Virus record (IMG/VR): IMGVR_UViG_3300028048_000138
Coordinates: 4,739-68,738 of that record
Reading direction: 5' to 3' (one strand)
Source: a virus
Lineage: Duplodnaviria > Caudoviricetes
Length of the DNA stretch: 64,000 bases
Shown in pieces: positions 3,379-62,289 of the stretch. Both the position numbers and the translations under genes were made by a program. Below the pieces are notes generated by a model, which saw only the letters and a list, made by a program, of their open reading frames with translations, was not told the origin of the DNA and did no database searches. Every line of letters begins with the position of its first letter. Position 1 is the first letter of the stretch.

Positions 3379-3379
3379 A

Positions 3380-5515: not shown

Positions 5516-5519
5516 GACT

Positions 5520-5555
5520 AAATAATAATTGTAATACACAAGTTTCTTATTATTT
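5520..5555. promoter_or_regulatory. Back-to-back pair of late-type TTATTATTT motifs
   Basis: TTATTATTT on minus (5520-5528) and plus (5547-5555), each 4 nt before an ATG. Confidence 0.6.
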
Positions 5556-5559
5556 ATGT

Positions 5560-6120
5560 ATGACGAAAATTCCTGTAAATATTGTGATAGGTAGATTTCA
5601 ACCGTTCACCGATGGTCATATGCGTTGTGTACTCGCTGCTAAGAAACAGTTAGGAATAAATACTGTGATATGTCTTATTGATACTCCAGATAATAAAGTA
5701 GATAAAAGACACCCGTTTCCATCATCCTTGTTACTTCCCATATATAAAGATTTGTGTAATGATTATAACTCCATTTTAGATGTGGTGTTGGTTAAGAATG
5801 CCGATATAGTAAAAATAGGAGAGATACTTAACGATAAATACATTATTAAATCTTGGACATGCGGAACAGATAGGATTGATACATATCAGAAGATGTCAGA
5901 GAAATATAAAGAACAAGCAGGACTAGCAGATGACTTTCAGATGATAGAAGTTCCTCGAGGAGATGAAGATGTATCTGCCACTAAAGTTAGAAAGGCGCTT
6001 CTTGATGGGGATAAGAGAACATTCGAAAAACTTACACCATACGATACTCTTCGGTCTGTTATGAAAGAACCCGACAAGATATATAATTTACTTCGCGAGC
6101 AAATACTGAAAATTAATTAA
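5560..6120 (+). CDS. HIGH-class nucleotidyltransferase (cytidyltransferase-like)
   Basis: GRFQPFTDGH (HxGH variant), GTDR and VSATKVRKA motifs. Confidence 0.75.
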   Translation: MTKIPVNIVIGRFQPFTDGHMRCVLAAKKQLGINTVICLIDTPDNKVDKRHPFPSSLLLPIYKDLCNDYNSILDVVLVKNADIVKIGEILNDKYIIKSWTCGTDRIDTYQKMSEKYKEQAGLADDFQMIEVPRGDEDVSATKVRKALLDGDKRTFEKLTPYDTLRSVMKEPDKIYNLLREQILKIN

Positions 6121-6187
6121 ACCGTCATTTTTTTAAATTAAATTTTTTCAAAAAATTATTATTTGAATAAATTAAGTAAAAGTATAC

Positions 6188-7651
6188 ATGAAACAAAGTT
6201 TTATTTACGAAACCCTTAATGATGCCAAAACAATGTCCATCTCTAAAAATGAGAATGGTCTGATGACCTTAAGTGGTGTTTTTGGTGTTTGTGGTGTACG
6301 TAACAACAACTCCAGAGTTTACGAGACATCTAACTATAAGAAGATGGTTGACGAGATGAAAGAGCGTATTAAAGTGGATGGTGGTATCCCTGGTGAACTT
6401 GAACATCCTCAGTATATGAATATCACTCTGGAAAACATCTCACATAAGATTACTAATATTGACATTGATGAAAAAGGTGTGGTAAGTGGTACTATTACCC
6501 TTCTTAACACCCCAAAGGGTAAGATTGCACAAAGTATTGTTGAAGGCGGTCTTCCTCTTTTCATTTCATCTCGCGCTATGGGTAATGTAGATCCTAAGAC
6601 CGGTGCAGTGACACTTGAAAAGATATCTACATATGACCTTGTCGGTACTCCTGGTTTCTCACAGGCAAGACTTCACCTTAATGAGAGTCAGATGGTTGAT
6701 TTCGAAAACAAGATGAATACCGAAGGAAGCGCAGAAGTTGGTAATGATATTTACACTCAAATCTCCGAGTCAAATATTTACTACGTGACTGAAAAAGAAA
6801 ATAACGAAAATAAAATAGAAGAAAATAATATGGAAATGAATGAGATTCTCGAGAAACTCCAGGCACTCGAGACCAAAGTTGCAGATCTCGAAAAAGAGAA
6901 TGCAGAGTTAAAGGAGTCTGTTGAGAATACTCCTAAGTTTGATTTAGAAAAGATCGCTGAAGGCATCCAGGGTTGGTGTATTAATGAGTTCGCTCCTCAA
7001 ATCGCCGGTTGGATCACCGAAGAGTTCGCTCCTGAGTATAAGGAAGAAATGGTTTCTGAAGCTATGGATTCCTTCAAGGATTACCTCCTCAACGAGGCCG
7101 CTCCTAAGATCCAGACCTGGGTCGTTGAAGAGTTCGGTGGTGAGGTTGAGAAGTGGGCTACCACAGAGTTTGCACAGGGTATCCAGAGCTGGATCGTTGA
7201 AGAGTATGCTCCGGCAACACAGAACTGGCTCACCGAACACTACGCACCTAAGGTGGAAGAACAGATCGCTAACGCAGTATCTGAGTCTAAGAAGAATAGT
7301 CTTTCATCTATCGATGATACACTGAAGCTCCTTGAAGGTATCGAAGTAAGCAAGCCTATCTTCCAAAGCGCTAAGTCCGTTAATGAAGATGCTCCTAAGT
7401 ATATTAAAGAGATGCCTGAAGCAGTACGTCCTCTTTATGAGAGCGCAAGCGATGAGATGAAAGAATCTATCAACCGTCGTGCAAAACTCTATAACTTCGC
7501 AAATGAAGGTTCTATTCAGAGATTCTGGGAAAGCATTGATTTCAATAGCACTCCTACAGTGAAGAACGTTTACGAAGGACTTGATCAGATTACTGATCAG
7601 AGAGAAAGGGCTATCCGCGCCGCCTTCCGTTCTTGGAGAAGTGCACGTTAA
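6188..7651 (+). CDS. Prohead core protease (T4 gp21-like) with scaffold-like C-terminal extension
   Basis: GELEHP, ISSRAMG and TYDLVGTP motifs; acidic helical C-terminal half with 12-aa repeats. Confidence 0.85.
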   Translation: MKQSFIYETLNDAKTMSISKNENGLMTLSGVFGVCGVRNNNSRVYETSNYKKMVDEMKERIKVDGGIPGELEHPQYMNITLENISHKITNIDIDEKGVVSGTITLLNTPKGKIAQSIVEGGLPLFISSRAMGNVDPKTGAVTLEKISTYDLVGTPGFSQARLHLNESQMVDFENKMNTEGSAEVGNDIYTQISESNIYYVTEKENNENKIEENNMEMNEILEKLQALETKVADLEKENAELKESVENTPKFDLEKIAEGIQGWCINEFAPQIAGWITEEFAPEYKEEMVSEAMDSFKDYLLNEAAPKIQTWVVEEFGGEVEKWATTEFAQGIQSWIVEEYAPATQNWLTEHYAPKVEEQIANAVSESKKNSLSSIDDTLKLLEGIEVSKPIFQSAKSVNEDAPKYIKEMPEAVRPLYESASDEMKESINRRAKLYNFANEGSIQRFWESIDFNSTPTVKNVYEGLDQITDQRERAIRAAFRSWRSAR

Positions 7652-7672
7652 TCAAACGTCACATATTGTATG

Positions 7673-7703
7673 AAAAAGAGATCCGTGAGGATCTCTTTTT
7701 TTT
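7673..7703 (+). terminator. Intrinsic terminator
   Basis: AAAAAGAGATCC-gtga-GGATCTCTTTTT plus T-tract after the protease gene. Confidence 0.85.
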
Positions 7704-7736
7704 GATCAAGTTGGGTTTAAGTGTGATTATTTAATC

Positions 7737-8186
7737 ATGTTTCAATCATTAATACTTAATAACAAAACAATGTTTCATTCAGACTTCCTGGACGAAGATA
7801 TGTGGAATCTTTTAGATACTACTTATCAAATGCCGGATAATTTTGATTTTATCATTTATGAAGTCGCTGAAGAAAAATATATAGGTAGACCCGATCTAGT
7901 ATCATTAGATTACTATGGAGATGCTATGTATGCCGATGTGATATGTAAACTTAACGGTATATCTAATCCATTTGAACTTAATGTAGGTATGCTTTTAGCC
8001 CTTCCTGCTCATAAAGATATAAATAATTTCATAACAACACCATCATTAGAAGATAGGGAGCTGGATGTAGAAAATCAAAACAAACCTAAACCAAAAACAA
8101 AGAACGAAAAGAGAAAACCCAATGAAGCAATTGTTGGAAATAAGAGATTTAAGATTGATCCTGCTGCTGGTATAATAATGTATTAA
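7737..8186 (+). CDS. Baseplate wedge subunit, gp53/LysM-like
   Basis: RPDLVSLDYYGD...ICKLNGISNPF pattern. Confidence 0.7.
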   Translation: MFQSLILNNKTMFHSDFLDEDMWNLLDTTYQMPDNFDFIIYEVAEEKYIGRPDLVSLDYYGDAMYADVICKLNGISNPFELNVGMLLALPAHKDINNFITTPSLEDRELDVENQNKPKPKTKNEKRKPNEAIVGNKRFKIDPAAGIIMY

Positions 8187-11935: not shown

Positions 11936-12115
11936 ATGGGATTTGAAAAAGCAATAGAACACGGAAAGACAAAACGTAAGCCTTATCGAGGGAGTAAACG
12001 TTTTGATTGCAGCTGTCGTAATCACGGAGAGTGCTCTTGGTGTAGACGGAATCGAACATATAAAACCATCCGAGATCTTGAGAAAACAGATCAGGAGATG
12101 AAGGAAAGTGTATGA
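11936..12115 (+). CDS. Small basic Cys/His protein
   Basis: ATG 11936; RFDCSCRNHGECSWCRRNR; ATGA overlap with the next gene. Confidence 0.6.
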   Translation: MGFEKAIEHGKTKRKPYRGSKRFDCSCRNHGECSWCRRNRTYKTIRDLEKTDQEMKESV

Positions 12116-12582
12116 GTATATTTGATACAAATCTTGTCGAAGAAACCTGGGTTGGTATGGGATATAAATTCTGGAACTGTACCAATCCAAAAAACACCGC
12201 TATCTGGGATGATATTCTAAAATTAAACTTCTCGCGGGATAAACTTAAAGAGAAAGTAAAAGAGTTAATATTACGAGAAGACGGAACGATGAAGATATCC
12301 GAGAGTGAGTTTCAAGACATGAATGATGTTCTTGAAAATCATAGCATATTTAAGTTAAGTAAGGAATACATATATATAATTTTAATTTGTCTCGTCGCCC
12401 CGACCCTTAATGAAAACGATCTTTCAAAAATATTCACTTCATGCCTTAAACAAACCCAACTAAGACGAGGAGCGGATGTGGTGGTTACTGTTAAATTCCC
12501 CGGAAGTGAACATTGTCTTATATTTATCAAAGCAAATACCACTACTCCTCAGGGTATAGGGATTACTTTGAAAAGAAAGTAA
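12112..12582 (+). CDS. Hypothetical protein, MSIFD-start class
   Basis: Starts MSIFDTNL; ends in a beta-strand plus KRK. Confidence 0.6.
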   Translation: MSIFDTNLVEETWVGMGYKFWNCTNPKNTAIWDDILKLNFSRDKLKEKVKELILREDGTMKISESEFQDMNDVLENHSIFKLSKEYIYIILICLVAPTLNENDLSKIFTSCLKQTQLRRGADVVVTVKFPGSEHCLIFIKANTTTPQGIGITLKRK

Positions 12583-14347: not shown

Positions 14348-15973
14348 TTAAACCCCAAATATTCTTAATTTTTCATCAGCTAATTTAATTTTTTCTTTGA
14401 GTACTGACACACAATTCTCTAATTTTTTAAGATCACTTTCATCCTGGGTGGACTTATATGAATTACCAAAAGCATTCATATATGCATCCATAAACTCTTT
14501 AAATGTATACATTAATCCGTTATCGCCATAATATGCCGGACCTGAACTAGGTTTCCAAGCTTTATATTGGGAGTTATAGCGTTTAGAATCACGAACCCAG
14601 TTTAAGAAACTAGTTACTTCATACTGGCTGAAAGATTTCGGGTCCTTTGCAACCTTCCTCACGAGTGCAACAACGCGGGTGTTAATCTTCTCATATTCGT
14701 CTATAAGTTTATCATACTCACCACTTTCATCTTTCTTCCTCGCAAGTTTAGCTTGTGCAATCAGATCTTTATATCTCTTGATATTCTCTCGCGCTATGGC
14801 TTTATACTGTTCTACATCACCCGGATTAATCATTCCCTTCCTGTTCTCTTCTCTTTCCTTATGGATATTCCATGCGGTACCAGTATCTGTACCCGTGGCT
14901 CTTCCGGAGTTGATTACAACAACAGTATATCCAACTCCGTAACGAAGGAGTTTTTCTCTGGCCTCTGTTTTTGAATATATCGTTCCAGTACTTACTTTTT
15001 CACTACTACCATTATGAGGAATATTTATCCATTCAATACCAACAGATTGACTACCACGCGCCCTGGCAACATATCCAAAACCACCAATAAACTCCCCTTT
15101 ATCTTCGTTATATACTAATATAACATCAGCTCCTTCGCGGTTATTAGAACTATAAGCATCATAGAAAGCTTTTCCAAGTTCTTTCTTATCCTTCTCATCA
15201 CTCATGTCATAGACATCGATATCGTCGCTGGTTATCTTATCAAGAAGCCTAATAGAGTTCCCACCAAATGATGACTCTTTTCCATAACGGAATACATCTT
15301 TAATACTGCTATAACGATCGGGTTCGTTTTCTCTCCATGAGTATTCTTTATAAGGATATTTCTTCAGCTGACGTGCCAGTCTCTGTAACCACGGGTTATT
15401 AAGAGTCTCGGTTACCACTCCTTCAACAACATCTGCTTCTATTTCTTCAGCACCACAGAAAACTTTCTTAATAACATGAACTTCATTCTTCAGTTGTTCC
15501 GCACTATACTTCTTACCATTACCACTCCAGTATAAGTTTCCGAATACAGCATCAATTCCTTCCCAACTCTTCACCTTCTTACAGTTTGTCACACTCAGAT
15601 CACCTTTGATCATCCCAGGAAGACCCTTAAGAGATGTAAGGGAAGGACATAAGTTGATAGTGATGCTCCCATCAAAAACTGGCATCTTTTCAAGAAAACT
15701 GCCTTCAAGTGTGGTTAAGTTAGGGCAGTTCTCTATAATGAGTTTGCCGTGGAAATCCCTACAATTAAAATGTATTTTATCCGATTTTAACCCTGTTACA
15801 ATAAGTTTACCGTTAACCCTTACAGAACCATCCTTAAAGTTAACTAAATCATATTTTCCTTTACAATTATTTAAAAATGCAGCGGCTGCGTCTTTATTTA
15901 CTTCTTTTGCAAGACGATCATCACCCACTGCATCAAATAAACCTTCGTTTAACACATTGATTAATGACTTCAT
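14348..15973 (-). CDS. Leucine-rich-repeat-like/coiled-coil protein with MKSLINVLNE|GLFD leader
   Basis: LTTLEG, LTSLKG and VKSWEG repeats; late-type motif 4 nt before ATG. Confidence 0.6.
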   Translation of the reverse strand: MKSLINVLNEGLFDAVGDDRLAKEVNKDAAAAFLNNCKGKYDLVNFKDGSVRVNGKLIVTGLKSDKIHFNCRDFHGKLIIENCPNLTTLEGSFLEKMPVFDGSITINLCPSLTSLKGLPGMIKGDLSVTNCKKVKSWEGIDAVFGNLYWSGNGKKYSAEQLKNEVHVIKKVFCGAEEIEADVVEGVVTETLNNPWLQRLARQLKKYPYKEYSWRENEPDRYSSIKDVFRYGKESSFGGNSIRLLDKITSDDIDVYDMSDEKDKKELGKAFYDAYSSNNREGADVILVYNEDKGEFIGGFGYVARARGSQSVGIEWINIPHNGSSEKVSTGTIYSKTEAREKLLRYGVGYTVVVINSGRATGTDTGTAWNIHKEREENRKGMINPGDVEQYKAIARENIKRYKDLIAQAKLARKKDESGEYDKLIDEYEKINTRVVALVRKVAKDPKSFSQYEVTSFLNWVRDSKRYNSQYKAWKPSSGPAYYGDNGLMYTFKEFMDAYMNAFGNSYKSTQDESDLKKLENCVSVLKEKIKLADEKLRIFGV

Positions 15974-39953: not shown

Positions 39954-41747
39954 TTAAACACCTTTCTTATTGTTCCAAATATATTTTGATTGTCCTGAAT
40001 CATATATTTTAAAATATTGAAGGTTATCCATAATTTTAGATTCAGATAATTCTTTATTAAACCCTAATTTTATTAATTCGGATTTTCTAAATTTATATCT
40101 ATGATATCTGTTTAATTTTTTATCTACATACCAATATGATCCAAAATTACTTTTTGAAAGATCAAAACCCAGAGAATTATAAATATTACCATTACTAATA
40201 TCATTTGAAGAAAATGATTCTATATAATTCGGACCGTATTGCTTTATAAAATATGTGAACATTTTACTAGCTCCTCCAATAACCTGATACCCAAGTTTAT
40301 TACAATATCTATAAAGTTCCCACCCATCAATATGTTTTTTATTGAATATTTTTCGTATCTTCCCAAATGTCATTATAGAAACTAAATCGTTGTTGTAATA
40401 TAATCCTATTTTAATAGAACTGTTTACGTTTCCTTGTAGATGATTCGTGTTTATAAAATTTATTGATTCTTTAGTAGATACAATTTTTACTTCACATTTT
40501 CTTGCATATATGCGTTTATTGAAAAATCCGAGTTTTGATAAGATAATGGATTTTATAATTTCGGGGGTTTTTATTATTTGATCTTCCCATATTGTGAGTA
40601 ATTGAATTCCCTTTTCATTACATTCTTTCCATTTTAAATAATGTTTTTGTGAGTTTTTATTATTCATTCTATTAACGGAATGCCAATAAATACCGTTGCA
40701 TTCTATCGCTATTTTTTTATCGGGAATATAGATGTCTAATTCTTTGCCATTTAATACAGTTCTATCATTAGTAATATAATTAATATGTAAATCATCTAAT
40801 ATGTTTCTGACAAATATTTCTAAAGAAGTTCCTTCAATATTGTCTTTGGAAACTGGGTTTAATTTTGTACATAATTCTATTTTATTATATCTGCGGACTG
40901 TATAATGCTGAGCACTTATATTGAATGTTTTTTCTTTACATTTCAAACAATTTTCATGAGGACATTTACATGTATATTGTAAGACTCCGTTAATTGAATT
41001 AATATCTATTAGATAATCGTCGTGTTTTTTTAAGAAATTTTTGATTTTGGTGTTATAAGCTTCTTTTTGTTTTTCTGGGGATCCAAATATTGTTTTATTA
41101 CCATATTTCAATAAATTTGTTTGAGACGCTTTTTCTCTATTTGTAAAATGTTCAATCCCATATTTATTTAAACATGTTTGTTTTGATTTTTCTTGATTTT
41201 CTTTTAATTGTAAATTTGTTTTCACGCCATATTTCTTTAAACACGTTTGTTTTATTTTTTCCTTTATTACTGGAGATGAAGATGGATTATCGCAACCGTA
41301 ATTTTTAATCCAAGTTTGTTTTTTCTTTTTCGATATTTCTTTATTATGAAGCGGACATGAACAACCATATTTTTCAACATTAGTTTGTTTCATTTTATCA
41401 ATAATTCCTTGATATTGAGAAGAATGTTCAACCCCATATTTATTTAAACATGTTTGTTTTGATTTGGATTGAACTTCTGGAGATGATGATGAGCATTTTG
41501 TGGAACAAAATCTTCTATAACCAACATTAAATGAATGATATTTTACAAATTTACCACAAACTGAACAAACCGGATGAGAATTTATATTATGATAATACCA
41601 ATAAAGTTTTTCGGAAAATGTTAAATTTTCTTCAATATATTGATTATTAATCCATGTATAAAAATCTGGGAATTTTTTCTTTATAAAATTCCCAGTTAAT
41701 TGACCCGGTTTAAGATTTTTTAAATATTCTAAAGATGGAATTTCCAT
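39954..41747 (-). mobile_element. Free-standing putative homing endonuclease
   Basis: Same N-terminal Zn domain and KYGV repeats as 27044..28303; ELDIY...AIECNGIYWH nuclease motif; extra C-terminal domain. Confidence 0.75.
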
Positions 41748-43815: not shown

Positions 43816-45069
43816 TTATTCCGCATCTGCGAGTTTTGAGGCAAGCTCGGAGAGAATAGCGAGTTTAGCAGGGTCATTCTTGAACTTCTCTGTCAGAGCA
43901 GCGATACGCTCTTTATAACCGTTCTTTTCATTCACCTTAGCTTCTTCCTCAAGCCTAGCTTTTTCTTCCTCATCAACATTAGCCATATGACTCTTTACAG
44001 CTTCTGCGTAAGCTTCACCAAGTTCTACGTTGGTCTTGGATTTAATGAATGAAAGGGTTGTTATAGCATCTTCGTTAACAGTCCATTTAGCATTGTGGTT
44101 GGACTGAAGAAGTGTAGCATAGAGATCACTACCAGCTTCAATAACAACAAACTTATCACGGTTAGTGTTATAAATAGAGACATTATCAAGATTTACAATA
44201 TTATTGTAGTTCTCAAAGGTGAGTGCAAGAGCCTCGAGTGCAGCTGCAACCCCCTTATTAATGGAACCAGCAACAACAAGGTTGTTATGTTCACGGAGTT
44301 CGTCGACGGTCTCGAAGAGATTTTCAACTCCATTTGCACCAACGCGCTTGCAAGTAATCTTTTCATCAGCCTCACTAATTGTGTACTCACCATTACCTAT
44401 CTTTGCAGTAAGTGTGCCCTGGTCAAAGGACACCATATTGCTTTCGAGGAGAGAAGAAATAGTCTTGAATGTGTTGGATACTTCATTCCAACCAGCTTCC
44501 TGAACTTTCTTATCTTCGTCAATCTTGTAAACGGAACCAGCAACTTCAAAGAAGAAACCATCACCCGCGTTCTCTACAAGAGAGATAGGATGAACTGCTG
44601 TGTATTCAGCTGTTGATTCAACGATAGGAGTGTCTGCATAGACCTGCTTTGCGATGTTACGGAATGCTTCGCAGAACATAACGTTCTTTAGTGCACCAGC
44701 TTTAATATACTTAACCACGTTCTCTTCATCCATCTCAAGTAACTTCTCTACCTGCTTTGCAGCGTTGCGATTGAGATAATTATAAGACCTTCCGTTAGCA
44801 TTGATATCCTCACATGCACATGCGAGTGCCCAGCTAGCCTTGTTAGATGTGATATAATCACTTACCTGTTCGAGCACAGTATTAACACCATTATCATAAC
44901 GAAGACTTGCAGCTTCCTTAACGAATTGATTAACAAGCGAACATGTAGCGTTGTTAGCCATCAGGAACGACTTGTATTTATTTAACATATTGTTACCACT
45001 CTGAGTCTGACCGGCTGACTCGTTTAAAATTGAAGCAAATTCCAATCCGGCTAAAATCTTAATGTTCAT
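43816..45069 (-). CDS. Highly expressed acidic protein, candidate head/prohead core component
   Basis: Monocistronic; codon usage like the protease gene; several (L/I)xE-S/A sites; late-type motif upstream. Confidence 0.45.
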   Translation of the reverse strand: MNIKILAGLEFASILNESAGQTQSGNNMLNKYKSFLMANNATCSLVNQFVKEAASLRYDNGVNTVLEQVSDYITSNKASWALACACEDINANGRSYNYLNRNAAKQVEKLLEMDEENVVKYIKAGALKNVMFCEAFRNIAKQVYADTPIVESTAEYTAVHPISLVENAGDGFFFEVAGSVYKIDEDKKVQEAGWNEVSNTFKTISSLLESNMVSFDQGTLTAKIGNGEYTISEADEKITCKRVGANGVENLFETVDELREHNNLVVAGSINKGVAAALEALALTFENYNNIVNLDNVSIYNTNRDKFVVIEAGSDLYATLLQSNHNAKWTVNEDAITTLSFIKSKTNVELGEAYAEAVKSHMANVDEEEKARLEEEAKVNEKNGYKERIAALTEKFKNDPAKLAILSELASKLADAE

Positions 45070-45126
45070 ATTTATTTGGTATGTTTATTTCTTATATAAT
45101 AACTTATTTATTCATTTTGTTGAAAA

Positions 45127-45234
45127 TTATGACTGTTTAATATCTTTCATTGTAAGATCGGTTAAAAGAGTCCAAATATGAGTTCCGTATCCGGGCCTAT
45201 CTGAATCAAACAGGCTTTCTCTTAAACTTTTCAT
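45127..45234 (-). CDS. 35-aa MKSLRESLFD-leader ORF (possible remnant; not in ORF track)
   Basis: MKSLRESLFDSDRPGYGTHIWTLLTDLTMKDIKQS; ATGA overlap with the upstream gene. Confidence 0.55.
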   Translation of the reverse strand: MKSLRESLFDSDRPGYGTHIWTLLTDLTMKDIKQS

Positions 45235-45891
45235 AATTTATCAGCTAATCTTTTTACTTCTTGTGAAGGAATGGGTTTTCCAATCTTACAATATTTATCA
45301 ATAAGTTTATCAATCCTTATTTTAAAACTATCACTATTAAACACAAATATAGCTGTTTCTAGTCTGTCTAAACAATCTTTAATTGCTTCTTTATCACTAA
45401 ACGAATGCCCGGGTCTACCATCACGAGATAAACTTTCTATTTCGGCGAACCTATTATAACGATCTTGTATCTTCATCGGTGGATTGCTACCGTCAGCTTT
45501 TTTTATTTCAAACCATAAATCGGGTGACCACAAACACCATAAACTTTCATCATCTACATTTTTATCCATCGGAACCACAAATTCTGGGCGGAAATATACA
45601 TAGTATTTAAAAGGTTTTCCGTTAATATTAAAATCAAAAACTTTACCCAACCCCCCCGTTTGGTTTATCCGCGTTCATATCACGGGATATTATAATTGAT
45701 TCGGTTTCACTGAATCCATAATTTGAATGAATTTCATATTTAATCCCATACTTATCGTATAAAGATTTTATCTCGTTCATAAACTCATATTTTAACATAT
45801 CGGGAGTCACTCTTGTGGGGAGATCTTTATCAAACAACGATTCCGTCATTTGAGTCTTCGAATCAAACAAACTTTCACTTAAACTCTTCAT
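45231..45891 (-). pseudogene. MKSLSESLFD-leader gene frameshifted at a G7 tract
   Basis: Track ORFs 45643..45903 and 45231..45650 fuse into a 219-aa ORF if one G of the G7 run (C7 on plus, 45651-45657) is removed. Confidence 0.55.
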
Positions 45892-45892
45892 A

Positions 45893-46474
45893 TTAGACAT
45901 CATCTCTTTTTACAAACTCCCATCTTAATACTTCGGGATAATTTATATGTTTATTCTTATACCCATCATAATAAAGCGAAATAAAACAACCAAACCTCGA
46001 TCTGCAATCTACTTTAAAATAAAAATATTTACCACGAGATTCGTCTTTATATTCCGGGAGTATATATTTATCAAGTTTAGGAGTAAATTCATCACGAAAC
46101 CTACTATTAAATCCTCCAAAGTAATATTCTTCTGTATAAGGAATACTCAAAATAAGACGAGCAAAATCCTCGGTTTTCTTATTTGTATCGGCATTTCTCA
46201 TCATATATTTATCTGCATTCGCATATGCATACAGACCAAGATCAATCTTATCTCCACCCCACTTTTTAAGGTCTTTCTTTACAGCTTTCCAATCAATCAC
46301 ACCCAAAGCATTATTCCCGTCATAATCACCGGTAGGAATGATAACCTTGCTCAATCCTTGACGGAGCTTATAAACCCATTGTCCATCAAAGAAAACGATA
46401 TCCTTGAGTTGATTTCCGATGGGTTCTCTTTCAACTAAATCTTTATCAAACAAACTTTCACTTAAACTTCTCAT
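45893..46474 (-). CDS. MRSLSESLFD-leader family protein
   Basis: Leader motif; ATGA coupling. Confidence 0.7.
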   Translation of the reverse strand: MRSLSESLFDKDLVEREPIGNQLKDIVFFDGQWVYKLRQGLSKVIIPTGDYDGNNALGVIDWKAVKKDLKKWGGDKIDLGLYAYANADKYMMRNADTNKKTEDFARLILSIPYTEEYYFGGFNSRFRDEFTPKLDKYILPEYKDESRGKYFYFKVDCRSRFGCFISLYYDGYKNKHINYPEVLRWEFVKRDDV

Positions 46475-46950
46475 CTCTTCTCAAACTTTATTATAACATC
46501 GGTGTATTCTGTCATGTTTGATTTTGTTATATGTAATTCAATAATATCAAGATCCTTCGAGAAATATACTGCACCATGTTCCCCCGAAAGACTCACATCA
46601 ATACCTCTTCTAAATAGAGGAGAACGAGCGAGGGGTTTGAATGTGTCGATAATATCTTTATCATAATAAGGTTTTGGTTTATATGGAAAATCAGCAACTA
46701 ACCCCGCTATCATCTCTATAGTTTCAAGATACTTATTGTCATAATGACTATTTTGAGGGACCTCACTTAAATCTAATTTTTTATCTTTAGCGGCCTTCTT
46801 AAGTTTACTCATATTGAACATAGTGGTTATACGCATAAATGGAGCATCCCTATTTGTACTGGTGATCCAAACTGGTTTATATACATCGCCAAATTTAATA
46901 TCTTTCTCGACGAGGTCTTTGTCAAATAAACTTTCACTTAAACTTTTCAT
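46471..46950 (-). CDS. MKSLSESLFD-leader family protein
   Basis: Leader motif; ATGA coupling. Confidence 0.7.
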   Translation of the reverse strand: MKSLSESLFDKDLVEKDIKFGDVYKPVWITSTNRDAPFMRITTMFNMSKLKKAAKDKKLDLSEVPQNSHYDNKYLETIEMIAGLVADFPYKPKPYYDKDIIDTFKPLARSPLFRRGIDVSLSGEHGAVYFSKDLDIIELHITKSNMTEYTDVIIKFEKR

Positions 46951-47444
46951 TTCTCTATAAAAATTGCTCTTAATTTAATCCATTTAGTCCTCGCACCAAA
47001 TCGTTTTGATATTTCAAAATATAATTCATGTTGAGCATATACTGGTTTATAAAGCGCAATATTCATATCGGATTTATTCACGTATTGAGGAAAATCTTTA
47101 TTAATTATATCATCATATAAATCATACCACGATAGGTCGTCGACTCCAGGAAGTATGGGTAAGTTACAAACCACTGTAAGCATCCTTAAAAACGGTTCAA
47201 AAATATCAGGTCTTTGATCATTTGAAACAAATTTAATATCTTTATAATCAATAGGTTTGATTGATTTAATTTTCGATTTAAACATCTTTTCAATCAACAC
47301 CTTATCTTCATCGGGGCCGTTATGAAAACTATAATAGTCACCCCAGATGGTGTCAATTGACTTTATTTTATACTCATCTCCAATCTTCGGAAGATCTCTT
47401 TCAACCAAATCATTATCAAACAAACTTTCTTTAAGACTTTTCAT
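46947..47444 (-). CDS. MKSLKESLFD-leader family protein
   Basis: ATG 47444 overlaps the end of the upstream gene by 14 nt. Confidence 0.7.
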   Translation of the reverse strand: MKSLKESLFDNDLVERDLPKIGDEYKIKSIDTIWGDYYSFHNGPDEDKVLIEKMFKSKIKSIKPIDYKDIKFVSNDQRPDIFEPFLRMLTVVCNLPILPGVDDLSWYDLYDDIINKDFPQYVNKSDMNIALYKPVYAQHELYFEISKRFGARTKWIKLRAIFIEK

Positions 47445-48111
47445 ACCAAGAAGGAATTTTTTTAAGAGATTTACAATTAGCAAACATATTATACGTATCA
47501 TTAACATTCCTCACATTCCATTTAGAGAGATCAGAGTTGAATGATGAACAACCATTAAACATAGAACGCATATTTTTCACTTTACTCACATCCCATTTAG
47601 AAAGATCGGAGTTGAATAATCCACAGCCAAAAAACATAAAACCCATATCATTAACATTCTTTACATCCCATTTAGAAAGATCAGAGTTGAATGATTTGCA
47701 ACGTTGAAACATACCCTCCATTTCAGTCACATTCTCCACATTCCATTTAGAGAGATCGGAATTGAATTTTCCACATCTACAAAATGTTTCATTCATATAT
47801 TCAACATTAGAAAAATCCCACTTTGAAAGATCAGAATTAAATGATTCACAACCATAAAACATGAAATTCATATCTTTAACATTACTCACATCCCAACGTG
47901 ATATATCTATATTACAAATATTTAAATCCCTGAATAGATCCGGCATGTCTTTTATCTTACTCACATCAATAATATTAAGATTAGCATCGGGTCCTTGTAA
48001 TTCGAGTTGTTCTTTGATGCAATCAACCAATTCATTTCTTGTTTTGGGGTGATAGAGTATATCTCTTTTAACTAAATCATTATCAAACAAACTTTCTACT
48101 AAACTCTTCAT
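47431..48111 (-). CDS. DUF285/BspA-like repeat protein with MKSLVESLFD leader
   Basis: Five to six 25-aa WDVSNVxxMxxMFxGCxSFNSDLSK repeats. Confidence 0.8.
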   Translation of the reverse strand: MKSLVESLFDNDLVKRDILYHPKTRNELVDCIKEQLELQGPDANLNIIDVSKIKDMPDLFRDLNICNIDISRWDVSNVKDMNFMFYGCESFNSDLSKWDFSNVEYMNETFCRCGKFNSDLSKWNVENVTEMEGMFQRCKSFNSDLSKWDVKNVNDMGFMFFGCGLFNSDLSKWDVSKVKNMRSMFNGCSSFNSDLSKWNVRNVNDTYNMFANCKSLKKIPSWYEKS

Positions 48112-48146
48112 ATATAAAAAATAAAGGGAATCATTTAGATTCCCTC
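48112..48146 (-). terminator. Terminator hairpin overlapping a late-type motif
   Basis: On minus: AGGGAATC-taaat-GATTCCCT then TTATTTTTT-ATAT-ATG. Confidence 0.6.
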
Positions 48147-48286
48147 GTTTTCCTAGCGTTTCTTTTTGGACCATCTAATATATCGTTCCAATATGGATCA
48201 ATCCGCATATCCTTTAATAAAAAGGATTTAAGATCGATATCTGGAATCTTTATTTTTGGTACTTTTGGTTTACGATCCTTGGCCAT
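48131..48286 (-). CDS. 51-aa basic protein (not in ORF track)
   Basis: MAKDRKPKVPKIKIPDIDLKSFLLKDMRIDPYWNDILDGPKRNARKTRESK fills the gap. Confidence 0.5.
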   Translation of the reverse strand: MAKDRKPKVPKIKIPDIDLKSFLLKDMRIDPYWNDILDGPKRNARKTRESK

Positions 48287-49774: not shown

Positions 49775-50068
49775 ATGAATTACATTGTACTACCCACTTG
49801 TATAACTGTGTATGATTCTTACAAAGTATCCAAAAAAGAATTTAAACCATTCTTAAATGATTTGAGAGAAGGATATATTGGTAATTTAGTGTTGTATTAT
49901 AGATCCAACTGCAGTCTCACTAATGAATGGGTTTGTCATAATTTCCTATATATGATTGGATTTTTTAGAAGTCATACAAAAAATGTAGATATGCAATATC
50001 CTTTGAAGTGGTGGGAAAAAATAGTATATCCCTGTTTTGGATGGTTTTGTAAGTTATTTGTTAAGTAG
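49775..50068 (+). CDS. Hypothetical protein
   Basis: Lone rightward ORF in a leftward block; NEWVCHNFLY motif. Confidence 0.55.
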   Translation: MNYIVLPTCITVYDSYKVSKKEFKPFLNDLREGYIGNLVLYYRSNCSLTNEWVCHNFLYMIGFFRSHTKNVDMQYPLKWWEKIVYPCFGWFCKLFVK

Positions 50069-50142
50069 TACCCCCTACAGGATTCGAACCTGTGACACAC
50101 GGATTAGAAATCCGTTGCTCTATCCAACTGAGCTAAGAGGGC
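50069..50142 (-). tRNA. tRNA-Arg (anticodon TCT)
   Basis: Cloverleaf GCCCTCT/AGGGGGT, D arm GCTC/GAGC, anticodon arm ACGGA-TTTCTAA-TCCGT, T arm ACAGG-TTCGAAT-CCTGT; no encoded CCA. Confidence 0.95.
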
Positions 50143-53204: not shown

Positions 53205-53492
53205 TTATTTTCTTTTTTTTAGTTCGAGTATGGTGAAATCATCGTCTAATACTCGTCTTGAGTAATCAGGAATCTTCAGTCCGAGTTTTCTCCAAATAAA
53301 CTGCATTACAATCTTACTAGTGTCTTTGATTAATTTGGTACGCTGTGGATCATGGAAATATATACCACCTGTGTTTATTTTTCCCATTTTATCATCCCAT
53401 TCTTCCAAAATAGGTTTAAGTTCTTCTTTAATTGTTTCATAAAGAAGTTCCTCACTATTTTCTTTCGGACTATTTTGGTCAAATATAGACAT
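53205..53492 (-). CDS. Hypothetical protein, MSIFD-start class
   Basis: Starts MSIFDQN; ends ILELKKRK. Confidence 0.6.
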   Translation of the reverse strand: MSIFDQNSPKENSEELLYETIKEELKPILEEWDDKMGKINTGGIYFHDPQRTKLIKDTSKIVMQFIWRKLGLKIPDYSRRVLDDDFTILELKKRK

Positions 53493-53506: not shown

Positions 53507-53668
53507 TTAACTCATGTTTTTGTGTTTAATCTTACGAGTATATTTTTTCTTATTTCTAAACACTTTCTTAAAACTAATAGGATGCCCGTAAAGTTCTATT
53601 TCAGCTTCGCGGGATCCTCTTCGGATGGCTTTGATAACATCTTTCTCAGTATGTAATTTAACTTTCAT
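53507..53668 (-). CDS. 53-aa basic protein, ArfA-like C-terminus (not in ORF track)
   Basis: MKVKLHTEKDVIKAIRRGSREAEIELYGHPISFKKVFRNKKKYTRKIKHKNMS. Confidence 0.6.
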   Translation of the reverse strand: MKVKLHTEKDVIKAIRRGSREAEIELYGHPISFKKVFRNKKKYTRKIKHKNMS

Positions 53669-54362
53669 TTTTAGTAATCATCAATCTAAATATTATAGAA
53701 GGAGAATCAAATAATGCGTTTTTCTTCAAGAGACCACCACGAAGGATATTATCTGTATTAAACCAATAACATTTCTCTCCTCCTACTTCATCTACATACA
53801 ATTCAATTCTAAACGCATGTGAGCGTGAAGTCCCGATGTATTTCGGTATACAACGGACCCTTACCTTGCATCCAGGGCGAACATGTAAAAGAATATTGTT
53901 TTCTATGCTCCCCGCAACAACCTTCCAATATTTTGAGTAATCTGGAGTAGGTTCATATGAAAACCAATAAAAATTTTCAGATTCGTCAAATTCGGGTTCA
54001 TTAAATTTATGTGATTGACTTTCTTCCATTGGGAGATTCTTATCAAAATCTCCGTTAAGAGCTACCAGTTTTATGAGGTCATGTATATTATTAATGTCTT
54101 CATCGAATATCTCGCTATATCCAACCCACTTCCTTTTCTCTCCTACGAAACATTCAAACTTATTACTACTCAAAACGTAATCAGATCTCATGTCCGGAGG
54201 GAGTGTGCATTTACGACTAACTGGAACCGACGACTCTCCTATTCCTAACATCTTATTTCTAGTGATGATGTCACGATCGTGCCCATTTCTATATTCACAT
54301 TGTTCAATATGGAATATATTGAACATTTTATCTAGGAAATTGTCTGCGTCAAATATGCTCAT
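53658..54362 (-). CDS. Hypothetical protein, MSIFD-start class
   Basis: Starts MSIFDAD. Confidence 0.6.
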   Translation of the reverse strand: MSIFDADNFLDKMFNIFHIEQCEYRNGHDRDIITRNKMLGIGESSVPVSRKCTLPPDMRSDYVLSSNKFECFVGEKRKWVGYSEIFDEDINNIHDLIKLVALNGDFDKNLPMEESQSHKFNEPEFDESENFYWFSYEPTPDYSKYWKVVAGSIENNILLHVRPGCKVRVRCIPKYIGTSRSHAFRIELYVDEVGGEKCYWFNTDNILRGGLLKKNALFDSPSIIFRLMITKNES

Positions 54363-58662: not shown

Positions 58663-60516
58663 ATGAACAGCAAATTTAATCCCATAAAAGAAGATAAAGA
58701 AGGTGTAGTAGCAAGAAGGGTCATTTGGTCAACAGAAGCTCTTAATACTGCTATAAACGGATTAAAGGAAGGTAAGAAACTCGTCGCTAATCCATTTTAT
58801 GAAAATAATATAAAATTACTTAAAGATAATCTTGTGTTTAATAGAACACCTGAAGAGATAGCCGAGTGGAAGAAGTGTGCAAAGGATATTCTTTATTTTG
58901 CCGAGAAATATTGTGTATTGATGACCCCAGAGGGTCGACAACATATACATTTGAGGGATTATCAAAAAAAATACCTATTACATTTATTTAATAATAGATT
59001 ATCAATATATCTTTCAGCTCGTCAATCAGGTAAGACAACTTCTTCTGCTATCTTTATTCTTCATTATCTCCTCTTTAATTTTGATAAAGTTGCACTCGTA
59101 ACAGGTAATAAACGTAAGACCGCTGTTGAAATACTTGATAAAATTAAAAACATCTATCTTGAACTACCTTACTTTATTAAAGGAGGGGTTCATAAATGGA
59201 ATGAAAGTGAAATAGTTATTGATAATGGTTGCAGGGTTCTCGCGGAGGCTACTACTCTCAACACGGGTATTGGTTTTTCCATCAATTTCTTATACCTCGA
59301 TGAGTTTGCCCATCTACCCGCGAATATTGCGGAAAAGTTCTATAATAACATTTTCCCAACCATGGCCGCAACTAAAGGTAAAGTGGCTATCAGTAGTACT
59401 CAAAACGGGTATAATCTATTCTATCGTATATATAAATCTGCGGAGGCTGGAGAGAACGACTATAAAGCATTTAAAACCGACTGGGATGAGGTACCCGAGT
59501 GGAACCCAGAGAAGAGATGTTGGGAGCCAAGAGATGAGGCATGGCATCAAAAACAGATAGCTAACTATGGTAGTGAGGAGGCGTTTAATAGTCAGTTCGG
59601 CACGGAGTTCGATGTGGGAGCGAAAACCCTCCTTCATCGAAACACCATTAGAAAACTTCGTCAGAATGTTGAAGAGTTTGTTCATCAAGACCTACCAGGA
59701 GTGTCTCAGAGTGAGAATTACTATTGGAAACCCGGCTATGATCCTCAGTCACAGCTCCGACAGGACTTCATAGTTATAACTGGTGACCTTGCGGAAGGAG
59801 TGAATAAAGATTATACTGTGTTTGATATATGTAGACTTATTGAACCCGGATCGGGCAAACTTGAATGCATAGGGTACTATCGTACCAATGAGACTGATCG
59901 TCGTGATGTGGCAAAAACCATCACGGAACTAATTGCTATACAATGTGATATCAACCACACTCTACTGTCCTTTGAAAGAAACACATATGGTGAGTTCTTT
60001 CTTAAGCTCATTGAAGAACTACAAGATGAGATCCCTGGATTTGATATGAGTTGTTTGGTGAAGTATTATAACGATACCAATACCAGATTTGAATATGGAA
60101 TAAAGATAAGTAGAGGGAACAAGAATACAGCATGTATACTCTTTAAAGAGGACTTTGAGAAAGGGTTGATAGATAATAAATCAACAGTCTTTGTTACGGA
60201 GATTGGTAACTTTACGGATAGTGAGGATAAGGGAGTTTGGAAAGCAGCATTTGGACATGATGACGTGGTGATGTCTATGGTGCAGATTGAGTTTGTTAAG
60301 AAGACACTTCAATATATATTACTTAAACAAGATTTTGACGCTCAATCAGTTGCGAGTAACGATACTAATTATAATCCATATTCTAGCATGTATGATAGTG
60401 TGATACCAAACGAGTTTAGAAGTGGATTTTATGATGGTTTTGCTGAAAGTGGATTTAGGAGTATATATGATTTCGAAAGAAACTCCAATGAGAGCAGATT
60501 GAATAGATTGTCATGA
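58663..60516 (+). CDS. terL: Terminase large subunit (T4 gp17-like)
   Basis: LRDYQ, ARQSGKTT Walker A, LYLDEFAH Walker B, SSTQNG, GDLAEG and HDDVVMS motifs. Confidence 0.92.
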   Translation: MNSKFNPIKEDKEGVVARRVIWSTEALNTAINGLKEGKKLVANPFYENNIKLLKDNLVFNRTPEEIAEWKKCAKDILYFAEKYCVLMTPEGRQHIHLRDYQKKYLLHLFNNRLSIYLSARQSGKTTSSAIFILHYLLFNFDKVALVTGNKRKTAVEILDKIKNIYLELPYFIKGGVHKWNESEIVIDNGCRVLAEATTLNTGIGFSINFLYLDEFAHLPANIAEKFYNNIFPTMAATKGKVAISSTQNGYNLFYRIYKSAEAGENDYKAFKTDWDEVPEWNPEKRCWEPRDEAWHQKQIANYGSEEAFNSQFGTEFDVGAKTLLHRNTIRKLRQNVEEFVHQDLPGVSQSENYYWKPGYDPQSQLRQDFIVITGDLAEGVNKDYTVFDICRLIEPGSGKLECIGYYRTNETDRRDVAKTITELIAIQCDINHTLLSFERNTYGEFFLKLIEELQDEIPGFDMSCLVKYYNDTNTRFEYGIKISRGNKNTACILFKEDFEKGLIDNKSTVFVTEIGNFTDSEDKGVWKAAFGHDDVVMSMVQIEFVKKTLQYILLKQDFDAQSVASNDTNYNPYSSMYDSVIPNEFRSGFYDGFAESGFRSIYDFERNSNESRLNRLS

Positions 60517-60526
60517 TTATTTAGTT

Positions 60527-61039
60527 ATGAAAAGTTTAATGGAATCATTGTTTGATACTGATTTAGTTACTCGTAAGTTGTCTATAGAGAAGTATATGGA
60601 CGACTTTAGTAGCACTGCTCTTGAGAAGTTAGACCCCGAAGAGAGAAATACCCTATTCGACACTCTCTTTGAAAGCGGAAAAGTTTGTAATGCCGCTGAA
60701 CTAAGGAAGACTCCTGTTGATTTGACAAAAAACATAATAATGATGCGTTCAGATGATCCAGACATGCTCAAAAAATTAGATGAAATCCACTATCAGTGGA
60801 GATATAGTTATATATATAGTCTTTTATTTGAAGGTGAAGAAAGAACGTTTATTGCCAGTTTAGACGGCACTGGTAGTGGAAAATATTATTACTGGGATAA
60901 CGAAAGACTCCCTCGCGCTGATAAAGCACGTAACTGGAAAGCAAAAGTTGCTGCTTTTTATACGCAAGACTGTTCCTATTCTATTATATCCAACGAGAAA
61001 TGGGTGAAAGAAATAATTGATAGTATACTTACAGATTAA
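60527..61039 (+). CDS. MKSLMESLFD-leader family protein
   Basis: Leader motif; late-type motif 4 nt upstream. Confidence 0.7.
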   Translation: MKSLMESLFDTDLVTRKLSIEKYMDDFSSTALEKLDPEERNTLFDTLFESGKVCNAAELRKTPVDLTKNIIMMRSDDPDMLKKLDEIHYQWRYSYIYSLLFEGEERTFIASLDGTGSGKYYYWDNERLPRADKARNWKAKVAAFYTQDCSYSIISNEKWVKEIIDSILTD

Positions 61040-61040
61040 T

Positions 61041-61718
61041 ATGAATGATTTAAAAACATATCTCGAATGTGGTCCTGCTGGTGCATCAACACCGGCTAAT
61101 ACTATGGGCATGGGTAATCCCGGACAACTCTCGCCAGATACTCTTACCGAGCCCGTGGGTGGAATAGAGAAAACTGCAAAGACTCTCAAACAGAACGATC
61201 GTAAGAAGAAAAAGAAATTTAAATCCCTCTCTGAGTCAATCTTCGATGATGATCTTGTAACACGCGATATGTCCAGGTTTGGTAGTATGTTTAAATTAGA
61301 TAGTGTTGAGATTAAAGAAAAAGTGTTAAAACCGGGCCCTCTTAATCACGGTATACCCACTATGTTCGATACAAACCTCAAAATCGGTGATTTATATAAA
61401 ACCACCCTACTCTCAAAAGACACTGGGATTCATGTGACTAAAGATCCAAACACCATCGCAGCAGCACTGGATAAGATTATTTGTGATACAAAGATAACCC
61501 CGGAGTTCTTTAAAATGACCCTTTATGATTTTGGTAGGATGCTCTGTATAGAAAATCGTAAATATTACTCAAGAATCCTTCTCAGAGATTCATACTTAAA
61601 TATGTCTGCTGATGTGTATGCGTTTGATAAAAGAGATAACTATGATAATCTCGTTTTAGATACTGATGTCATACGAATTGAGTTCTTTCATATTACATTA
61701 ACATATAAAAGAAAGTAA
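61041..61718 (+). CDS. Leader-family protein with N-terminal extension
   Basis: Starts MNDLKTYLE; internal FKSLSESIFDDDLV at 61218. Confidence 0.65.
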   Translation: MNDLKTYLECGPAGASTPANTMGMGNPGQLSPDTLTEPVGGIEKTAKTLKQNDRKKKKKFKSLSESIFDDDLVTRDMSRFGSMFKLDSVEIKEKVLKPGPLNHGIPTMFDTNLKIGDLYKTTLLSKDTGIHVTKDPNTIAAALDKIICDTKITPEFFKMTLYDFGRMLCIENRKYYSRILLRDSYLNMSADVYAFDKRDNYDNLVLDTDVIRIEFFHITLTYKRK

Positions 61719-61719
61719 G

Positions 61720-62289
61720 ATGAAAAGTTTAGTAGAAAGTTTGTTTGATTCGAAGACTCAAATGACGGAATCGTTGTTTGATAATGATTTATCTAAGAAG
61801 AGAATTCTTCTTGGTGATGTGGTGGAACTAGAGACATGGGAGTGTGCCAACCTCGAGGAATACAGTGTGCTCGGACCTGTTCTGGATAGTACGTTTTCCG
61901 CCAAACTCAAAAACAAAATTATAAAACTTCCAAAGTGGAAAAAATTTCTATCTCCATTTGAATCAATATACAATAAACCATTTAGTAGTCTTGATATAAA
62001 ACAACAAGCTAGAAAATATATAGGTGTTTGGCAGTTATGGACGTTTACCTGGGTAGTGATGTGTTGCACTTCACTTAAAGAGATTCCAATCAAACTCAAT
62101 GAGTTTATGAAGGAGATTAGTAGGGATATTAATGATGAGTTTGGTGAAGATTTCCACATCACGAAGACGGACATCTCCCCACTTGAAGGATTAGGCGATA
62201 TGAAGGGACTACCGAGACTCGTTGTTATTAAGTTTAAAGTTTATGGTAGAGAAATTGTTGTTTATATGAAATTAAAAAAGAGAGACTGA
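61720..62289 (+). CDS. MKSLVESLFD-leader family protein (doubled motif)
   Basis: MKSLVESLFDSKTQMTESLFDNDL. Confidence 0.7.
   Translation: MKSLVESLFDSKTQMTESLFDNDLSKKRILLGDVVELETWECANLEEYSVLGPVLDSTFSAKLKNKIIKLPKWKKFLSPFESIYNKPFSSLDIKQQARKYIGVWQLWTFTWVVMCCTSLKEIPIKLNEFMKEISRDINDEFGEDFHITKTDISPLEGLGDMKGLPRLVVIKFKVYGREIVVYMKLKKRD

Follow-up and report, generated by a model that had tools for sequence, protein, structure and literature searches.

Tandem genes with a common N-terminal leader and variable bodies in a bovine gut phage: a candidate capsid-targeting signal

We analysed a 64,000-nucleotide (nt) stretch of DNA from an uncultured jumbo phage (the window), bases 4739-68738 of the 68.7-kb IMG/VR virus fragment IMGVR_UViG_3300028048_000138, which CheckV estimated to be 42% complete. 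At 45127-48111 it carries a tandem array of genes (cassettes) whose products share an N-terminal leader on largely different bodies. From the comparisons described here, we lean slightly towards the view that the leader is a capsid-targeting and cleavage signal of the bacteriophage T4 type, placed on diversifying cargo. The phage sequence is contained in bovine gut metagenomes of several studies. By the large terminase subunit gene (terL), the nearest isolates, with about 30% identity, are Tenacibaculum jumbo phages and Sphingomonas phage PAU.

The array, its cassettes and its relatives

Six tandem genes on the minus strand, with starts at 48111, 47444, 46950, 46474, 45891 and 45234, encode proteins that begin M-K/R-S-L-x-E-S-L-F-D, as described in an earlier reading made from the letters without database searches (the sequence-only reading). 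Neighbouring genes overlap by 14 nt at 47444 and through ATGA at 46950, 46474 and 45234, and a single nt separates them at 45891. The back-translated motif GARWSNYTNTTYGAY had 12 matches in the window, where 0.22 were expected, and no shuffle reached this number. Ten leader members were found in the window, six in the array and four elsewhere, and two further members lie to the left of the window in the same record.

Cassette 1 (47431..48111, minus strand; 226 amino acids, aa) joins the leader MKSLVESLFDNDLVKRD to a DUF285 repeat body (PF03382; E = 8e-71; 235.7 bits against a gathering cut-off of 25), the family already named in the sequence-only reading. Its ortholog in a complete related genome of 240 kb (G001) is 64% identical and occupies a different array position. 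Over the repeat region (47417-47947), contigs at depths in the thousands and with many loose ends were present in all four sequencing runs; in the cattle gut, similar DUF285 repeats occur in many other organisms or phages.

Cassette 2 (46947..47444, minus strand) has the leader and a 165-aa body ending in RAIFIEK. It matches no known family in Pfam or PHROGs, and its match in the G001 array is at the level of the leader only. Cassette 3 (46471..46950, minus strand) has the leader and a 159-aa alpha/beta body ending in IIKFEKR, with orthologs in 22 clusters. In cassette 4 (45893..46474, minus strand), the leader MRSLSESLFD precedes a 193-aa body of the FFDGQWV type, which is 52% identical to the G001 gene at 213519 and related to the body of a 541-aa protein encoded at 14348-15973. 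The C-terminal ends RAIFIEK and IIKFEKR and a third, WEFVKR(DDV), are present as first read.

Although all six starts are real, the fifth gene is not a single open reading frame (ORF). Its 5′ part (45643..45891, minus strand) has a doubled leader, MKSLSESLFDSKTQMTESLFDKDL, and stops after 82 aa. A G7 homopolymer (45651..45657) causes a frameshift that splits the gene into this ORF and a 139-aa ORF (45231..45650, minus strand), which would continue cassette 5 if the tract were G6. Contigs of the likely source run keep the G7 tract; in a related strain sampled by a different study (a contig of run X2), one G is missing and the frame is open. Cassette 5 is either a true pseudogene or a phase-variable cassette. 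For runs X2 and X5, which cover the array in part, only the covered parts were used.

Cassette 6 (45127..45234, minus strand) is the 35-aa stub noted before, in which the leader runs directly into the C-terminal end IWTLLTDLTMKDI. Its full-length form is found in G001 as the last cassette of the array (200 aa). The stub is a deletion remnant, composed of the leader and the C-terminal 15-20 aa or so of a gene that is intact in G001.

The sequence-only reading had proposed a comparison of cassette number and order across related genomes, and both turned out to differ. The genes flanking the array are 80-87% identical between the window and G001; for example, a conserved 51-aa gene upstream of the array head (48131..48286, minus strand) is 86% identical. 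The window has six cassettes between these conserved flanks and G001 has four, arranged differently. In G001 the DUF285 cassette (64% identity) follows the FFDGQWV-type cassette (52%), the reverse of their order in the window. Cassettes 2, 3 and 5 of the window have no ortholog in the G001 array. In other relatives (P0012, P0015), cassette 3 is the first of the array, with the same sequence upstream of it. Between relatives, arrays differ by gain, loss and reordering of cassettes.

Four leader members lie outside the array. Three follow terL (58663-60516) on the plus strand, as had been noticed. The first (60527..61039; 170 aa) begins MKSLMESLFDTDLVTRK and is preceded by ATTATTT-N4-ATG, a copy of the late-type motif treated below. 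The second (61041..61718) begins MNDLKTYLE and has a Gly/Pro/Lys-rich linker of about 60 aa, followed by an internal copy, FKSLSE↓SIFDDDL (the arrow marks the predicted cut); the protein P0265 is of the same type. The third (61720..62289; 189 aa) has a doubled leader. The tenth member, missed earlier, is the 541-aa protein (14348..15973, minus strand), with the long leader MKSLINVLNE↓GLFD and ATTATTG-N4-ATG upstream.

A search with the exact DNA pattern of the leader led to three related viral contigs. A degenerate pattern gave 18, 10 and 9 strict matches in records of 240 kb (100% complete), 54 kb and 112 kb, and the reversed pattern, used as a control, gave none in four phage records. With looser protein patterns, 23-24 members were found in G001 and 16 in a second relative used for counts (G003). 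A 39-position leader profile matched 320 clusters (at 50% identity; E ≤ 0.001) among 1.84 billion proteins, nearly always at residue 1 and mostly in proteins of 130-200 aa. The few matches of 350 aa are two cassettes fused in one frame, and one of them retains the internal junction ...YINITE↓SLFD. Fused two-cassette ORFs with an internal leader, such as P0148 and P0149 from other metagenomes, represent a polyprotein-like natural form. A protein search with the leader gave no match in 50,697 cultured or deposited phage records, and in a DNA search of deposited phages the sole matches were DUF285 repeats of Prevotella Lak phages.

Anatomy of the leader and diversity of the bodies

The leader consists of a pre-sequence that ends in [L/I/M]-x-E and directly abuts the core S-L-F-D-x-D-L-V-x-K-D. 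Its invariant part is not the start but the core, S/G-[LIV]-F-D-x-[DN]-[LI], mostly continued by V-x-K-D. Among 62 cores counted in three genomes, 43 come right after [LIM]-x-E and 17 right after the initiator Met; the remaining two are the inner copy of a doubled leader with a canonical copy upstream. Non-initiator cores are thus directly preceded by [LIM]-x-E in 43 of 45 cases, against a background of 1.8% for [LIVM]-x-E. The middle residue of this motif is free, with 12 different amino acids. In a separate positional count of 61 cores, an upstream Met lay no more than 20 aa away in 59, and [L/I]-x-E came before the remaining two.

Pre-sequences are 6 aa (MKSLxE), 10 aa, 17 aa (doubled) or about 65 aa long and always end in [L/I/M]-x-E. 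Those of 10 aa include MKTLTEYINE, MKHLKEYINE, MKSLNEILNE and MKTLMESLQE; joined to the core they read, for example, MKTLTEYINE↓SLFD and MKHLKEYINE↓GIFD. Among orthologs of one body, the first ten residues vary solely at the middle of L-x-E. In one alignment (A1), E6, S7, F9 and D10 are invariant while the mean column identity overall is 12%.

The bodies are far more varied. The 46 members fall into 34 clusters by BLAST and 29 by jackhmmer. In a Pfam scan of 43 members, DUF285 was found in five and no other family in any; an ADP-ribosyltransferase domain was found in none. Bodies other than DUF285 had no match in Pfam or PHROGs, and PADLOC gave only four weak single-member matches (E 1.6e-4 to 6e-3). 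About nine members are connected by a deep profile of cassette 3; they have in common hGDhY behind the leader and a final strand that ends in F-x-K-R, so the bodies comprise one sizeable group of remote paralogs and many unlinked bodies. Most members are 130-210 aa long (median 175 aa); the leader is also carried by proteins of 541 aa and 343 aa.

Modelled with AlphaFold 2 (AF2) on the basis of 19 sequences, cassette 3 had a predicted local distance difference test score (pLDDT) of 86 and a predicted template modelling score of 0.83. Its alpha/beta body begins near residue 18 and residues 1-13 score below 50; in the model, the leader is predicted to be flexible and outside the fold. The modelled fold had no usable match by Foldseek against the PDB (best E 0.15), in BFVD (best E 0.056) or by VIA-align wide (best Z 3.8), and the ESM Atlas gave nothing usable for this cassette.

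These data bear on whether the members are simply an expanded paralog family, in which an N-terminal helix is the slowest-evolving part of one shared fold or an oligomerisation helix without a role in targeting or processing. The narrow size range, the hGDhY and F-x-K-R elements shared by many members and the link among about nine bodies could be explained in this way. A DUF285 repeat and alpha/beta bodies cannot be one fold, however, and 29-34 clusters stay unlinked. Moreover, the leader is modelled with low confidence outside the fold, stands on the 541-aa and 343-aa proteins and occurs after 60-aa linkers, and an [LIM]-x-E motif with a free middle residue is not expected of a helix packed in a fold. 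We consider this explanation quite improbable.

The leader is conserved in DNA as well, as had been seen, over about 30-39 nt rather than 45, and identity falls sharply at its end. Doubled leaders that precede unrelated bodies in two genomes share 81-92% identity over 72 nt, beyond which identity is 19-48%. Ser in the leader is encoded by AGT in 67-78% of cases (26% genome-wide), and Leu-4 by TTA in 64% (23% genome-wide). Homogenisation or recombination of DNA at the leader boundary is plausible.

The same identity drop and codon bias, together with promoter-like motifs that end 4 nt before the ATG, might instead reflect conservation of the nucleic acid itself, either as a translation-initiation enhancer for mRNAs lacking a Shine-Dalgarno sequence or a leader, or as a recombination site, with the peptide as a by-product. 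Each leader Ser or Leu position, however, is encoded by five to six codons, AGY/TCN switches included, while the amino acid is fixed; the main constraint is therefore on the peptide. In addition, the motif occurs internally, after linkers and in fused ORFs, and the codon that is free is that of the middle residue of the cleavage motif. An origin of the leader in nucleic-acid constraints seems to us highly improbable. The recombination handle put forward in the sequence-only reading is partly supported: the drop in identity at the leader end and the AGT/TTA bias speak in favour, but selection acts mainly on the peptide.

Protease, expression and genes with a single module

A prohead protease gene of the T4 gp21 / phiKZ gp175 family lies at 6188..7651 (plus strand) and is 85% identical in G001. 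Its product matches phrog_207 (2e-44), Peptidase_S77 (33.6 bits; cut-off 27) and Peptidase_S80 (33.4 bits; cut-off 23.4). By family membership, it is a candidate enzyme for a cut after [L/I]-x-E.

Directly downstream of the array is a conserved 417-aa gene (43816..45069, minus strand; 87% identical in G001), whose N-terminus MNIKILAGLEFASILNE is followed by S at the predicted cut. The protein has more than 900 homologs at ≥59% identity, and in 15 of 17 aligned sequences [IL]-x-E↓[SA] is found at residues 15-18. It is possibly a head core or scaffold-like protein. Its AF2 model (pLDDT 59) is too low in confidence to name a fold, and PDB sequence searches with this protein and a 466-aa protein gave no matches.

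Among the contigs of a metatranscriptome library from a different study, one (depth 24.6) matches 43820-45070 exactly. This contig, over the 417-aa ORF, is about sevenfold deeper than its neighbours and stops 1 nt short of the ATG, while contigs in cassettes 1-3 are short, at depth 3-4. These values hint that the mRNA of the 417-aa gene is highly expressed and possibly leaderless, with the qualification that contigs cannot prove transcription or transcript ends, or reveal timing.

The late-type motif ATTATT[TG] stands 4 nt before the ATG of terL, of a head-tail adaptor-like gene (12601), of a baseplate-like gene (7737) and of several large genes. In the window, ATTATT[TG]-N4-ATG is found at 5515, 5560, 7737, 12601, 15973, 21664, 30388, 58663 and 60527. 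Two of these sites, 60527 and 15973, are heads of genes with pre-sequence and core (class I), as are 144442 and 156411 in G001. The motif also occurs 22-27 nt upstream of the protease gene and other large genes. This distribution suggests that class I genes may be co-expressed with structural genes. If ATTATT[TG] is a -10-like element, the mRNAs of those structural and packaging genes would be leaderless. A bipartite promoter, TAGTAAAT, has nine copies in this record and is rare in G001 and G003, with three each; it could not be used for timing class II genes (below) across genomes.

About 28 genes in the three genomes start M-S-[LIV]-F-D-x-D-I-I-x-K, the core without a pre-sequence (class II). 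They form arrays of their own, such as nine genes at 1380-8175 of G001 and six at 106548-108911 of G003. In the window, class II genes lie at 12112..12582 (plus strand; MSIFDTNLVEE), 53658..54362 (minus strand; MSIFDADNF) and 53205..53492 (minus strand; MSIFDQNSP, 95 aa). ATTATT[TG]-N4-ATG precedes none of the 28, and class I and class II bodies have no cluster in common.

The reverse case, a pre-sequence without a core, was found with the pattern MK-x-[LI]-x-[EQ]-Y-I-N-E, which has 15 matches in G001 and 17 in G003, compared with 0.3-1.1 for permuted patterns. Matches without a clean core (class III) numbered 11 and 13, respectively; examples start at 9850, 60594, 95873, 133761 and 229874 in G001 and at 5751, 10535, 43218 and 104340 in G003. 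Many class III genes are preceded by the late-type motif, and their N-termini closely match the tag of T4 internal proteins (IPs), MKTYQEFIAE. The complete genome carries about 24 class I genes and about 50 genes when all three N-terminal classes are counted; T4 has three.

Because the predicted cut is followed by most of the conserved block, and because about 28 genes start with M-SLFD, what had been called a constant tag is two separable modules. The core is kept past the predicted cut and on proteins without a pre-sequence, and it may therefore have a function of its own, acting as a free N-terminal peptide. The M-SLFD class raises the question of the role of the post-cleavage peptide, that of T4 Alt included.

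One way to combine these observations would be a two-module code, which we offer tentatively as a possibility. The pre-sequence (module A) would load a protein into the head, and the core (module B, SLFDxDLVxKD) would be a common handle, functional only when its N-terminus is free and exposed by the prohead protease in injected class I proteins and by methionine aminopeptidase in class II proteins made in the cell. If so, dozens of injected and newly made effectors would show the same neo-N-terminus to one hub of the host or phage. About 50 genes, perhaps a sixth of the 240-kb genome by a rough estimate, would be under this code, and the MELITE↓LFDED of T4 Alt would be what is left of such a system in T4.

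In another explanation, which we regard as unlikely, the core is a short docking peptide for one common cytoplasmic partner, a hub of host or phage such as a sliding clamp, polymerase or chaperone, and needs a free N-terminus. The proteins would not be packaged, and the pre-sequence would be an addition for regulation or maturation, which some protease removes or which stays in place. The core is indeed the best-conserved part and would be retained in the mature protein, and methionine aminopeptidase would expose the same Ser or Gly in the roughly 28 proteins with the core after Met1. The predicted flexibility of the leader also fits, and clamp-binding tails of T4 proteins are similar in composition (gp43 ends SLDFLFG and gp55 ends SLDFLYEAND). 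Those tails, however, are C-terminal and have a different residue order, while the core here is never C-terminal. Docking leaves unexplained why every pre-sequence, whatever its length, has a gp21-type [L/I]-x-E end, why pre-sequences follow the T4 IP tag pattern and why class I heads carry the late-type motif. It is also compatible with packaging and does not exclude it.

A narrower proposal, that the core itself binds the clamp, was tried and rejected: the order S-L-F-D-x-D-L differs, and the core is always N-terminal or preceded by [L/I]-x-E.

Comparison with T4 and other phages

In the T4 record, IPII and IPIII begin MKTYQEFIAE↓A, IPI begins MKTFKEF...ITE↓A, Alt begins MELITE↓LFDEDTT and the duplicated fragment Alt.-1 begins MELITELFDG. 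T4 IPs and Alt carry capsid targeting sequences of 10-20 residues, which attach to the prohead core and are cleaved off by gp21 (PMC7411985); the cut in Alt, at ITE-6, takes away six residues (PMC5694885). Targeting by the IPIII tag lies with residues 4 and 7 and processing with residues 8 and 10, and Asp at position 10 stops processing but not targeting (PMC9026906). The IPs of T-even phages are diverse defence-countering proteins with only the tag in common (PMC3012670).

The leader described here likewise is a short N-terminal tag on otherwise unrelated small proteins (PMC9026906, PMC3012670 for T4). Both tags end in (L/I)-x-E, the site cut by a gp21-family protease in T4 and the predicted cut here. 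Both sets of loci vary between related phages. MKTLTEYINE matches T4 MKTYQEFIAE at M1, K2, T3, E6, I8 and E10, and at position 7 it has Y where T4 has F. Long leaders and class III N-termini resemble the T4 tag at its mapped positions 4, 7, 8 and 10, following MK-x-[LI]-x-[EQ]-[YF]-I-x-E, compared with T4 MKTYQEFIAE. Unlike T4 IPs, the members here have bodies without homology to T4 proteins, are not uniformly basic and are encoded in tandem, closely packed arrays. The commonest pre-sequence is 6 aa long and leaves a conserved 11-aa core after the cut, whereas the T4 IP tag is removed whole. Packaging is known for the T4 proteins and predicted for the members here.

T4 Alt is the closer parallel for the short leaders, with a six-residue pre-sequence ending in I-x-E and then L-F-D-x-D (MELITE↓LFDED and MKSLxE↓SLFDxD); the two are in register, with [L/I] at position 4 and E at 6. 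It differs in that the leader here has one extra Ser after the cut and that Alt, a packaged and injected ADP-ribosyltransferase of 682 aa, is cut a second time at its C-terminal side. In phiKZ and SPN3US, many head-internal proteins are also cut after Glu by a gp21-related (S80) protease, and ejection proteins form paralog families (PMC7411985, PMC5694885). Their propeptides, however, are about 110-130 aa long with the motif A/S/G-x-E, and no short common leader is reported. For P1 DarB, the N-terminal 30 residues suffice for capsid loading and delivery (PMC9024508), but DarB is a single large protein without the cleavage motif, a family of tagged cassettes or sequence similarity to the leader.

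From these parallels we infer packaging, cleavage, timing and effector function of the members as follows. The genes would be expressed together with head genes, and the N-terminal signal would dock each protein on the prohead core. The gp21-family prohead protease would cut after Glu, exposing Ser-Leu-Phe-Asp. The mature proteins would stay inside the head and be delivered along with the DNA to the next host, where the diversified bodies may act as host-takeover or anti-defence effectors. A constant tag with an L-x-E site on variable cargo, the central proposal of the sequence-only reading, has strong comparative support in the 43 of 45 [LIM]-x-E junctions, the T4 parallels, the protease, the leader outside the modelled fold and the cassette differences between relatives, with the changes that the tag has two modules and that most of its conserved block follows the predicted cut. 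The tag principle is known from T4; the scale and the two-part design are new.

Several observations weigh against a capsid-targeting signal. Most of the conserved block (SLFDxDLVxKD) is downstream of the predicted cut, and the 28 or so M-SLFD genes stand in separate arrays without the late-type motif, so that the role of the core is possibly unrelated to packaging. The head of the main array, for which a late-type motif had been claimed, has only a copy with one mismatch and no exact one; this copy is conserved in G001. In the RNA library, contigs of the array are of low depth, and DNA carry-over is possible. The members have a median isoelectric point of 6.8, while T4 IPs are described as basic (PMC9026906). 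The resemblance to T4 spans 8-10 residues only, so convergence is possible, and none of the cultured relatives among the phage records searched carries the leader.

If the leader does act as such a signal, the capsid-targeting principle of T4 would be ancient, reaching distant uncultured jumbo phages of the cattle gut, and would be scaled there to dozens of rapidly diversifying cargo genes per genome. It would mark a large, easily recognised set of candidate injected effectors, for anti-defence or host takeover, with no known folds. It would also give a testable cleavage rule, [L/I/M]-x-E↓S/G, and, for phages of Bacteroidota-rich ecosystems, a short tag of natural origin with which foreign proteins could be loaded.

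Two other features were observed near the array. A gene for a large HNH/homing endonuclease (phrog_3339, E = 1e-121) lies at 39954-41747 and a tRNA-Arg(TCT) gene at 50068-50142, both on the minus strand.

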